A DNA stretch of 17,334 nt from a virus (Duplodnaviria; Heunggongvirae; Uroviricota; Caudoviricetes). Each line of letters opens with the position of its first letter. The first letter of the stretch is position 1. The notes under the pieces were generated by a model. It saw only the letters and a program-made list of their open reading frames with translations. It was not told the DNA's origin and made no database searches. Below, one piece after another: positions 13,605 through 14,931 of this stretch. The translations under genes were made by a program, and so were the position numbers. The stretch is from IMG/VR virus record IMGVR_UViG_2690316086_000006. One strand, given 5' to 3'.

Positions 13605-13730
13605 GTTTCCCTCCGAACTTTACGATGACACCGATAATTACAAATTTAAATTTAAATTTCAACTTCTATTTGTAATGCCACTTATCAATTTTTTCTGTAG
13701 GATCGCGGAACTAGTTTACGAGGGGTGGTG
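13605..13730. promoter_or_regulatory. Immunity-region divergent promoter/operator (OR-like)
   Basis: AT-rich intergenic region with inverted repeat ATTACAAAT (13637-13645) / ATTTGTAAT (13668-13676) and TTTAAA triplets between the divergent Cro-like and CI-like genes. Confidence 0.5.
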
Positions 13731-14123
13731 ATGATCTTTGTAAAACGCCTTCAGCAGGTGTTGCAGGAATTGAATATAAACCAGTCAGAGCTGGGAAGAC
13801 GTCTTGGTGTAAAACCCCAATCCGTGCAAGGTTGGTTGAAAGGCGTGATGCCAAGAATGGATAAACTGGAAAAATTAGCAGAGCTCTCACAACATCCCGT
13901 CCATTGGTTCTTTATGGAAGAAGAAACTCTCGGCGATAAAATGGCTGTATCCAGTAATGACAACCAACCGCAACTTACAGAACAACAACGAAAAATCATA
14001 TCGCTTTTAGATGAGTTACCTCAAAGCGACGCAGAGCAGATCATTCGTGATATGGAGCAAAAACGCGATTTCTATAAACGGAAACTTGAAGAGTTACTGC
14101 GGCAGAAAAACAAAACTGCCTGA
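13731..14123 (+). CDS. CI-like repressor (XRE-type HTH, no S24 peptidase domain)
   Basis: ATG at 13731 with GAGGGG Shine-Dalgarno; HTH QSELGRRLGVKPQSVQGWLKG; coiled-coil-like C-terminus; 130 aa. Confidence 0.6.
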   Translation: MIFVKRLQQVLQELNINQSELGRRLGVKPQSVQGWLKGVMPRMDKLEKLAELSQHPVHWFFMEEETLGDKMAVSSNDNQPQLTEQQRKIISLLDELPQSDAEQIIRDMEQKRDFYKRKLEELLRQKNKTA

Positions 14124-14156
14124 TGCATTCCTTTTCTGGAACGAGCATCAGGCAAA
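14118..14156 (-). terminator. Putative terminator between the convergent CI-like and higA genes
   Basis: Inverted repeat GCCTGATGC...GCATCAGGC; minus-sense hairpin followed by a U-rich tract. Confidence 0.3.
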
Positions 14157-14169
14157 TGACTAGCAGATT

Positions 14170-14529
14170 TTATAATCCAACCAGGCTTTCCAGGGGGATA
14201 CCAAATTGATTATGAAGACGGCGAATCATTGGTAACGTAAGGCTTCTGGTACCATTCAACACCTCATAAACCCGATTTTTTTTCCCAATTGCGGGTTCCA
14301 AATCTTTCACAGTCAGCCCCTGCTGTTCCATGCGAAATCTTATAGCTTCAATTGGGGATGGTGGCTCAATGGGATAATGTTTTTTTTCATATTCCTCTAT
14401 TAGCAAACACATCACCTCAAAAAAATCCCCCTCAGGCGTGTCAATTTCGGGCTCATTGTCGAACATGGGTTCAACAGCACGCAACGCGGCTTCATAATCT
14501 TGCTCTGTACGAATAGGTTTGATGTTCAT
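14170..14529 (-). CDS. higA: HigA-family antitoxin (C-terminal HTH)
   Basis: C-terminus LTVKDLEPAIGKKNRVYEVLNGTRSLTLPMIRRLHNQFGI resembles E. coli HigA as recalled; GGAGTAAG Shine-Dalgarno; starts 2 nt after the toxin gene. Confidence 0.75.
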   Translation of the reverse strand: MNIKPIRTEQDYEAALRAVEPMFDNEPEIDTPEGDFFEVMCLLIEEYEKKHYPIEPPSPIEAIRFRMEQQGLTVKDLEPAIGKKNRVYEVLNGTRSLTLPMIRRLHNQFGIPLESLVGL

Positions 14530-14531
14530 GC

Positions 14532-14834
14532 TTACTCCAGTTCGATGGTATCAGCATCAATAGCATCGTATTCCTTGTGGTTTCCGATGAATTTAACAAA
14601 TACCCATCCTCGCTGATACGCAATTGCAACAATTAAACGGTAATGATTACCTTTTATGTTGAATACCACGCGCCGGTTTTTCAATATACTGGCCGTTCGG
14701 TATTGTGCCTTAATGTCTGCTGGGCTTTTCCAGTCAGCTTTTGCCGCCTCATCCACCCATGCCCTTAGCGGTTGTTCTGCATCAGGATTCTCCGCCCAAA
14801 AATCCCTGAGTGTTTTAACTGAGATAATCTTCAT
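14532..14834 (-). CDS. higB: HigB-family toxin (RelE/ParE superfamily)
   Basis: NHYRLIVAIAYQRGWVFVKFIGNHKEYD resembles E. coli K-12 HigB as recalled; ATG at 14834 chosen over the TTG track start. Confidence 0.75.
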   Translation of the reverse strand: MKIISVKTLRDFWAENPDAEQPLRAWVDEAAKADWKSPADIKAQYRTASILKNRRVVFNIKGNHYRLIVAIAYQRGWVFVKFIGNHKEYDAIDADTIELE

Positions 14835-14845
14835 AACTGTATAGT

Positions 14846-14931
14846 AGTCCCATTTTGGGACTGATGCAACAGCCCGCAATTACAAATTTAATAATAAACA
14901 TGTTGACCAGTTAAATTTTAATTTGTAAATT
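14846..14931. promoter_or_regulatory. Divergent regulatory region: higBA operator palindrome plus OL/PL-like operator-promoter
   Basis: Perfect palindrome AGTCCCA-ttt-TGGGACT (14846-14862); ATTACAAATTTAA (14879-14891) and ATTTGTAA (14921-14928) repeat the OR motif; plus-strand -35 TTGACC (14903-14908), 17-nt spacer, -10 TAAATT (14926-14931). Confidence 0.45.

Follow-up and report, generated by a model that had tools for sequence, protein, structure and literature searches.

In phage lambda, cro and the repressor gene cI diverge from a right operator (OR) that holds the promoters PR and PRM, and beyond cI and its cargo genes a left operator (OL) and promoter (PL) drive the early-left operon, with operator sequences at both early promoters. 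The lambda CI protein has an S24 self-cleavage domain, each operator consists of three 17-bp palindromes, and the cargo genes rexAB are co-transcribed with cI. In the Qin prophage, DicA represses dicC and dicBp, the promoter of ydfABC-dicF-dicB (PMC10448788; PMC3441716); its operator Oc is a contiguous 20-bp palindrome, TTGTTAGTCATAACTAACAA (PMC3441716), and the protein has no Ala-Gly cleavage site and is antagonized by the antirepressor Rem (PMC10448788). In CP-933P of Escherichia coli O157:H7, which carries paaR2-paaA2-parE2 and ydaS-ydaT (Jurenas et al. 2021, PMC8630535), the repeats common to OR and OL are footprinted by the repressor PaaR2, which forms octamers, and by YdaS; the cloned PL933P, with sites OL1-3 that resemble the OR repeats, is repressed about 100-fold by either protein (PMC8630535). 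Here we describe the corresponding region of a 17,334-nt stretch of viral DNA (IMG/VR record IMGVR_UViG_2690316086_000006; the window, to which all positions refer unless a locus is named), where a 9-bp word, ATTACAAAT, recurs in the intergenic regions on either side of a CI-like repressor gene and a higBA toxin-antitoxin (TA) pair.

Positions 13300-15300 are matched at 100% identity by chromosomal prophages of many enterohemorrhagic or Shiga toxin-producing E. coli (EHEC/STEC), among them O26:H11 str. 11368 and O103:H2 str. 12009, and this 2-kb interval served as the query against 5426 complete E. coli genomes. Genes were assigned from the RefSeq annotation of the matching E. coli prophage, Pfam and NCBIfam scans, and Rfam. 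The gene for the 130-residue CI-like repressor (13731-14123, plus strand; Pfam HTH_3, a helix-turn-helix (HTH) family) is separated by a 126-bp intergenic region (13605-13730) from a divergent cro/ydaS-like gene (13344-13604, minus; 86 residues, YdaS-family HTH, Pfam YdaS_toxin at 34.6 bits plus HTH_3, RefSeq), which opens the early-right operon and is followed, as in other lambdoid immunity regions, by a ydaT/cII-like gene (12910-13347, minus; RefSeq annotation) and replication genes (DUF1376/DnaT and P-like, up to 12877, minus; Pfam and RefSeq). On the other side lie higA (14170-14529) and higB (14532-14834), both on the minus strand, and a second intergenic region (14835-15247) that leads to the early-left genes. 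The gene order is thus that of lambda (cro, OR, cI, rex, OL/PL, early left) with a Qin/Rac/CP-933P flavor, and positions of about 13360-14940 are an exchangeable 1.6-kb immunity cassette of a lambdoid prophage of that type, carried by EHEC O26:H11, O103:H2 and related strains.

An earlier note on this DNA had reported the word ATTACAAATTTAA, which is the 9-bp core followed by TTAA, together with an inverted partner in both regulatory regions. The word occurs exactly at 13637-13649 and 14879-14891, inside a full common word of 14 nt, AATTACAAATTTAA, and the two partners are found at 13668 and 14921. On the plus strand, box A (13637-13649, core at 13637-13645) covers -10 to -18 of a PR-like promoter, and box A' (14879-14891, core at 14879-14887), distal in OL, spans -51 to -59 of a PL-like promoter. 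On the minus strand, box B (ATTTGTAAT, 13668-13676) is an inverted copy that spans -41 to -49 relative to PR and -35 to -43 relative to a putative PRM, while box B' (ATTTGTAAA, or ATTTGTAA(A); 14921-14929) is inverted with one mismatch and covers -9 to -17 of PL. A degenerate third copy, box M (ATTTCAACT, 13655-13663, plus), lies over the PR -35 hexamer and is a tentative candidate.

The number of boxes in the window is well above that in shuffled sequence, and so is not the background frequency of AT-rich DNA. The 9-mer core is present exactly three times, where we estimate about 0.13 by chance, and the 13-mer with up to two mismatches six times, where 0.72 are expected and none of 200 whole-window shuffles reach six. 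In dinucleotide-preserving shuffles limited to the two AT-rich intergenic regions, a common word of at least 14 nt arose in 4 of 3000. With one mismatch allowed, the core has four matches in the two regulatory regions and two elsewhere (16733 and 16774), which is near the chance level, as are the remaining near-matches to the box (7805, 16733 and 16770/16774). The outlying pair lies before the exonuclease gene (16733-16782), where the box-like words ATTAAAAAT and ATCTGTAAT, 41 bp apart, resemble the geometry of OL. We rejected it as a third operator pair, as each word contains a mismatch or variant and no promoter accompanies them; because the segment is present in 2128 genomes whatever their immunity type, and the repressor in 148, we take the pair to be a chance resemblance. 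A contiguous palindromic operator at 13638-13662 (TTACAAATTTAA-A-TTTAAATTTCAA, 21 of 25 positions self-complementary) was likewise not adopted, since its symmetry comes from AAATTT runs; the box cores within it are direct repeats, not inverted ones.

Scanning with a sigma-70-like consensus, with transcription starts placed 7 nt past the -10 hexamer, found an early promoter at each pair of boxes. The PR-like promoter (TTGAAA-17-AATTAT with a TG before the -10; 13634-13662, minus; predicted start near 13627) faces the cro/ydaS-like gene, and the PL-like promoter (TTGACC-17-TAAATT; 14903-14931, plus; predicted start near 14938), the analogue of dicBp, faces ydfC-DicF-dicB and is the plus-strand promoter that had been noticed to overlap the boxes. 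Read in one direction, the layouts are ATTACAAAT-agaag-TTGAAA-tttaaatttaa-ATTTGTAATTAT at PR and ATTACAAAT-ttaataataaacatg-TTGACC-agttaaatttta-ATTTGTAAATT at PL. Both regions place one box over the -10 and its inverted counterpart upstream of the -35; from box to box, PR has 31 bp and PL 42 bp, a difference of about one helical turn. One repeated sequence, at 13637, 13668, 14879 and 14921, therefore occupies both early promoters, as in a lambdoid immunity region.

For the repressor gene itself, which has the Shine-Dalgarno sequence GAGGGG at 13720-13725 (plus), the candidate PRM -10 is TAGGAT (13699-13704, plus; predicted start near 13711), inside an invariant TGTAGnAT (13697-13704) about 27 nt before the start codon; its -35 is poor. 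It is a better candidate than the scan match at 13625-13652 on the plus strand (ATGACA-16-TAAATT), which we rejected because its -35 is not kept in the relative whose repressor is 89% identical. The stretch 13683-13704 also contains a conserved TATCAATT, upstream of TGTAGnAT, that is not accounted for by the ATTACAAAT boxes; in the Salmonella relatives it is part of an inverted repeat, ATCAAT-N12-ATTGAT, around the putative PRM -10. It may be the site of an additional regulator, possibly Cro or YdaT; a YdaT-type site (TTGATT-N6-AATCAA, PMC9986795) was not adopted as an account of it, as the arrangement is mismatched.

Homologues of the repressor form a graded series, and we fetched their loci from E. 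coli (89% identity), Salmonella (70-74%), Sodalis (71%), Arsenophonus (52%) and Serratia (48%) for a comparison of eight lineages. The OR regions can be aligned end to end while the surrounding DNA is divergent. Their invariant columns are box A (ATT-CA-AT), TAAATT-CAA at the PR -35, box B (TTG-A-TG) and TGTAG-AT at 13697-13704. Box A is kept as ATTACAAAT, ATTACAGAT or ATTGCAAAT in the eight lineages, and the spacing of 31 bp from A to B is the same in all of them; box M reads ATTGCAAAT in Sodalis and ATTACAAGG in Serratia, and the complement of the PR -35 (TTTCAA/TTGCAA) is invariant in six relatives. In all eight repressors the HTH region is invariant as well, including the recognition helix KPQSVQGWL, which fits the kept box core T(A/G)CAA. 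The PL site is conserved in the E. coli, Salmonella, Sodalis, Serratia and Arsenophonus loci, with a -35 of TTGAC(C/T/A), a 17-nt spacer and ATTTGTA(A/G) over the -10; it was not located within the DNA fetched for the S. diarizonae and S. Javiana relatives, which carry PLD and PaaA2/TM2 cargo, respectively. In Sodalis, Serratia and Arsenophonus, OL/PL and its boxes are present and higBA is absent, and in Arsenophonus homology to the window begins exactly at 14878, directly at the edge of box A'. The right-hand boxes thus belong to PL and not to higBA, since they are kept in lineages without the TA pair.

A second line of evidence comes from prophages that exchange this cassette for another. 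Parts of the query were matched in 3146 of the 5426 complete genomes, but its middle in only 148. In other prophages the left flank ends at about 13359 (in one case at 13454) and the right flank starts at 14936-14942, a few bases from the predicted PL start, from where the other cassettes align rightward at 89-98% identity. Between the same flanks lie paaR2-paaA2-parE2 (CP-933P), a RacR type, a type with a 139-residue HTH protein, and a PaaR-like repressor with RelB/ParE. Each alternative has a promoter just left of the conserved leader and shares words with its own cI-cro intergenic region: GTTTAGT in CP-933P, TTAGGCG/CGCCTAA in the RacR type, AGTACAT in the 139-residue HTH type and AAAACTGT in the PaaR-like type with RelB/ParE. 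When the five cassettes were compared all against all, the longest word common to OR and its own OL was 14, 12, 11, 8 and 12 nt, against 5-10 nt for cross pairs. Operators co-vary with the repressor, as befits immunity specificity, in all five same-flank cassettes.

The repressor matches only HTH_3 and HTH_26 in Pfam. No S24 (LexA-like) self-cleavage domain was found by Pfam, and the AlphaFold model has C-terminal helices in place of the peptidase fold: a confident HTH domain (residues 1-61), a disordered segment (62-83) and helices at 84-94 and 99-127. The DicA model (NCBIfam NF007257) aligns over positions 6-132 of 135 with 49.9 bits and does not reach its curated cutoff of 101, and from this comparison we class the protein as a distant relative of DicA and not as its orthologue. 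The context is that of the DicA family, with a PL-like promoter driving the ydfC-DicF-dicB operon. The repressors of two same-flank cassettes, the one before RelB/ParE genes and the one of 139 residues, are 31-33% identical to it; identity to PaaR2 is about 25%, confined to the C-terminal region of the LTxxQ...LP motif.

CP-933P, with the same conserved flanks and the same prophage backbone, resembles this locus in its short HTH repressor with a related C-terminal region, in YdaS as Cro and YdaT as CII, in OR/OL repeats held in common, in a PL right before the same conserved leader, and in a type II TA pair in the rex-equivalent slot. It differs in its motif, GTTTAGTAA within 18-bp palindromes, in a repressor related to ours over the C-terminal part only, and in the co-transcription of paaA2-parE2 with the repressor gene; here the TA genes, higBA, lie on the strand opposite to the repressor gene, diverge from PL and have a promoter of their own. 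The dicA-dicC/dicBp region of Qin (PMC10448788, PMC3441716) shares the full-length alignment to the DicA model, the absence of a cleavage domain, the divergent Cro-like gene and the operon driven by its PL analogue, and supplies a precedent for autoactivation of the repressor promoter. Unlike here, the DicA operator is a contiguous palindrome of unrelated sequence and Qin has no TA pair between dicA and dicBp, while ydfA and ydfB of Qin are replaced in the window by an antisense Zn-ribbon gene. Unlike lambda, this cassette has no N/nut system.

Taken together, these data make it likely that the repeated words are the OR/OL repressor boxes of a lambda-like prophage with a repressor of the DicA/PaaR2 type. 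This agrees with the earlier note, which had read them as OR/OL-type sites, and it is supported by position (equivalent places on two promoters), by conservation of the boxes alongside an invariant helix, by co-variation, and by experimental precedent in a sister cassette, since the positional homologue in CP-933P is a PL with OL sites that is experimentally repressed by PaaR2 and YdaS (PMC8630535). We infer that the repressor binds these operators directly and represses PR and PL. Several points weigh on the other side. The boxes are not the contiguous 17-20-bp palindromes typical of HTH dimers, as in lambda and DicA Oc; box M is inseparable from the conservation of the PR -35 hexamer; and in the Salmonella relative the OL boxes (ATCTACAAT and ATTTGTAGAT) match the OR boxes (ATTGCAAAT) less well. 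PRM and the higB promoter do not reach the threshold that the consensus scan applies, and the repressor scores under the curated cutoff of the DicA family model.

The higBA pair between the repressor gene and OL is a type II HigB-HigA module, with a HigB_toxin protein encoded first and an HTH antitoxin second. HigB (100 residues) matches Pfam HigB_toxin (PF09907) with 113.6 bits against a cutoff of 27, and HigB in the Protein Data Bank (PDB) at E=3e-7; HigA (119 residues) has its HTH_3 domain at the C-terminal end (residues 63-115) and matches PDB HigA 5ifg/5ycl at E=3e-9. In its toxin-first order, HigB_toxin domain and C-terminal HTH antitoxin the module is like E. coli K-12 HigB-HigA (YgjN-YgjM; PDB 5ifg) and the PF09907 plasmid modules, although the similarity to the solved pair is only distant (E of about 1e-7 to 1e-9). 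The start codon of higB is the ATG at 14834, not 14837. A palindrome, AGTCCCA-TTT-TGGGACT (14846-14862), which had been taken for higBA's own element, lies 11 nt from this ATG in the spacer of the predicted higB promoter (TTGCAT-17-TACTAT, 14841-14869, minus); it is unique in the window and is a putative HigA operator. The pattern TCCCA-N3-5-TGGGA also precedes the higB homologues of unrelated plasmids (IncX1, IncF, Diaphorobacter and Vibrio), where it lies between TTGnnn and TAnnnT, and two prophage relatives and three plasmid homologues share the layout TTGnnn-17/18-TAnnnT enclosing the palindrome, which supports the view that it is part of the control of higBA itself. A role of HigA at OR was rejected, the palindrome occurring once in the window, upstream of higB. 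Plasmid modules likewise carry a palindrome inside the promoter, but two of them where the prophage copy has one.

The -10 of the higB promoter ends 6 nt before the ATG (6-7 nt in several plasmid homologues) and there is no Shine-Dalgarno sequence, so the higB mRNA is probably leaderless, in which the prophage pair appears to differ from that of K-12. At the other end of the module, a hairpin at 14117-14154 (minus; inverted repeat I18) that overlaps the end of cI and is followed by GUUUUGUUUUUC serves as an intrinsic terminator of higBA; it has a 10-bp perfect stem (-22.8/-26.1 kcal/mol, z -4.6/-3.4) and a U-tract on the minus strand only, with none on the plus strand. Read-through from the repressor promoter past this hairpin would give RNA antisense to higA, a second possible route of coupling between repressor and TA pair. 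From its own promoter, palindrome and terminator we conclude that higBA was inserted between cI and OL as a self-contained module. It is convergent with cI, on the opposite strand, and thus not part of a three-gene locus of the PaaR2-PaaA2-ParE2 kind.

That higBA occupies the position equivalent to rex on the opposite strand, as the earlier note had it, is upheld by the relatives, which carry other cargo or nothing in this slot. The slot is empty in Sodalis and Arsenophonus and holds two small open reading frames (ORFs) in Serratia, a PLD-family protein in S. diarizonae, PaaA2 and a TM2 protein in S. Javiana, and higBA in E. coli (100% and 89% relatives) and Salmonella (74%). This suggests that the cI-OL slot collects defense or addiction genes. 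The PLD-family protein of Salmonella (424 residues; 4006-5280 of loci L014/L015) has weak PADLOC matches to DrmC/DpdK-type nucleases, and the antitoxin beside the TM2 membrane protein (3954-4549 of locus L016) is PaaA2-like. PADLOC also matched HigB to PD-Lambda-2_A (E=1e-40) and HigA to PD-Lambda-2_B (E=2e-42), the latter at positions 1-119 of 402 only. PD-lambda-2 has three components (Vassallo et al. 2022, PMC9519451): A is HigB-like, B is an Xre-peptidase fusion and C resembles a P4 antitoxin. Both systems are prophage-associated, with HigB matching A and HigA the HigA-like N-terminal domain of B, but we rejected a classification as PD-lambda-2, as the 119-residue HigA lacks a peptidase domain and a C gene is absent. 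A defensive role of higBA is a possibility.

The likeliest of the competing explanations concerns box A', which might double as a control element of higBA, tuning TA transcription and coupling HigBA to the lysogenic state. The earlier note had raised such crosstalk as possible, and its geometry makes an influence of the repressor physically plausible: the higB and PL promoters stand back to back, their -35 hexamers 33 bp apart with box A' between them, and the box is centered at about -49 of the predicted higB promoter, 9 nt beyond its -35. Moreover, plasmid homologues have two HigA-type palindromes, the second of them about 30 bp farther upstream, at the place that box A' occupies in the prophage copies. 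Repressor and higBA are also strictly linked, each being found in 148 genomes at 149 places, with the whole 2-kb region as one place in 148 genomes (148 of 148), and they are linked as well in the 89% (E. coli) and 74% (Salmonella) relatives. However, box A' has the same place relative to PL in lineages without higBA and so was not created for it; all higBA-bearing cassettes stem from one insertion, which gives no independent replication; and the plasmid homologues autoregulate adequately through HigA's own operator. We consider a regulatory role of box A' at higBA, and repressor-higBA crosstalk in general, to be unlikely, and the specific idea that the prophage repressor took over part of higBA control, whether directly or because the higB and PL promoters compete, to be slightly less likely again. 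If true, the TA balance would report the lysogenic state, and could stabilize the immunity cassette or abort infection on titration or loss of the repressor.

The boxes could instead be chiefly sites of the Cro-like YdaS protein, with the CI-like protein recognizing something else. The cassette-specific part does include the HTH half of cro (boundary at 13359-13454), and in lambda and CP-933P Cro or YdaS binds the same operator regions as the repressor (PMC8630535). Yet there is no second repeated element common to OR and OL, and conservation of the boxes follows the invariant CI recognition helix; as known relatives use overlapping sites for both proteins, binding by both is likelier than binding by Cro only, and we give the Cro-only explanation little weight. 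Still less probable is that PR and PL are duplicated promoter modules of hexamers and UP-like AT tracts, with the boxes acting as elements for RNA polymerase or a nucleoid protein. The proximal box indeed lies on the -10 and box M on the -35, and the distal boxes are placed as an UP element or an activator site would be. Against this, the distal box is an inverted copy found at two distances, 31 and 42 bp, about one helical turn apart; each alternative cassette has a different OR/OL word, though all use sigma-70-type hexamers; and the shared repeats of CP-933P are footprinted by PaaR2 and YdaS (PMC8630535). Finally, that the words are a functionless by-product of AT-rich low-complexity DNA, as the composition (64-71% A+T), the many self-complementary AAATTT runs and the lone matches with one or two mismatches elsewhere in the window might suggest, is effectively refuted by the shuffles described above (4 of 3000 local, 0 of 200 whole-window) and by boxes and spacing that stay invariant down to 48% repressor identity while their flanks diverge.

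On the OR/OL repressor-site reading, the repressor would be a short DicA/PaaR2-like CI, with an HTH domain, a flexible linker, a C-terminal helical domain and no RecA-cleavable domain, that binds the 9-bp ATTACAAAT boxes arranged alike at both early promoters. HTH domains on the flexible tethers of a presumed oligomer could reach boxes 31 or 42 bp apart, and an oligomer held on both boxes would occlude or wrap each promoter. Repression would silence two operons, cro/ydaS-ydaT-replication to the left and ydfC-DicF-dicB-exonuclease-integrase to the right. Box B, centered at about -39 of the weak but conserved PRM, could at the same time allow the repressor to activate its own synthesis; for lambda CI, DicA and PaaR2, autoactivation from this position has been reported (PMC3441716; PMC8630535). 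The Cro-like YdaS protein probably uses overlapping sites. The higBA pair would be read away from PL from its own promoter, and HigA would autoregulate it through the spacer palindrome.

Both boundaries of the cassette have features of their own. On the left, the junction of the ydaS stop and the ydaT start (13303-13359), the usual recombination boundary, is about 55 bp of 94-98% identity across otherwise unrelated cassettes. The equivalent junction of CP-933P contains the YdaT operator and PRE (PMC9986795); a TTGATT-N6-AATCAA repeat is not obvious on inspection here. On the right, the boundary coincides with the start of the early-left leader (14941-15110, plus), from which a transcript would continue to ydfC, DicF and dicB. 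This leader, and the sequence on to 15540, is 89-98% identical across immunity types, GC-rich and structured-looking (ACCCACCCCGCCCCACAGAACGCAGGG...), and is the part of the query matched most frequently among the 3146 genomes. A search of Rfam with the conserved leader returned no family even at E<=1; the leader may function in processing or antitermination, or may control translation of ydfA or of the ORF that follows. The leader ends in a Shine-Dalgarno-like GGGGAAACAGAGGA, which precedes ydfA in other cassettes and here precedes a GTG-initiated ORF of 118 residues (15113-15469, plus), antisense to the ECs_2282-type Zn-ribbon gene (15248-15448, minus). Before the Zn-ribbon gene is a promoter-like site on the minus strand (15465..15438), whose transcript would head towards PL and higBA.

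Further to the right on the plus strand are ydfC (15541-15759; annotation), the DicF RNA (16102-16153; Rfam, 75 bits) and then dicB, a DUF1482 gene, the exonuclease gene and xis/int. The late region of the prophage carries an STnc100 small RNA and three tRNA genes (1320-1492 and 2115-2363, both minus); these genes, and DicF in the early-left operon, are of the kind usually found in lambdoid prophages of EHEC. A second type II TA pair, a ParD antitoxin and a RelE/ParE toxin at about 6046-6608 (plus; 8747-9309 in locus L001), is encoded on the strand opposite to its neighbors.

In the literature searched we found no publication describing this immunity cassette. Its logic is already known from lambda, Qin and CP-933P, and a TA pair inside an immunity region from CP-933P; what is specific to this cassette is the sequence and geometry of the boxes and a higBA pair encoded opposite to the repressor gene, divergent from PL and probably leaderless. 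The analysis provides a testable operator map for an immunity type present in 148 of 5426 complete E. coli genomes, EHEC O26:H11 and O103:H2 strains included, whose repressor would silence the DicF and DicB inhibitors of cell division. The inverted 9-bp boxes, 31 and 42 bp apart, may help to understand how short oligomeric repressors of the DicA/PaaR2 type read DNA. Finally, higBA joins paaA2-parE2 as a TA pair fixed in an exchangeable prophage immunity cassette, which supports the view that this slot collects addiction and defense cargo.

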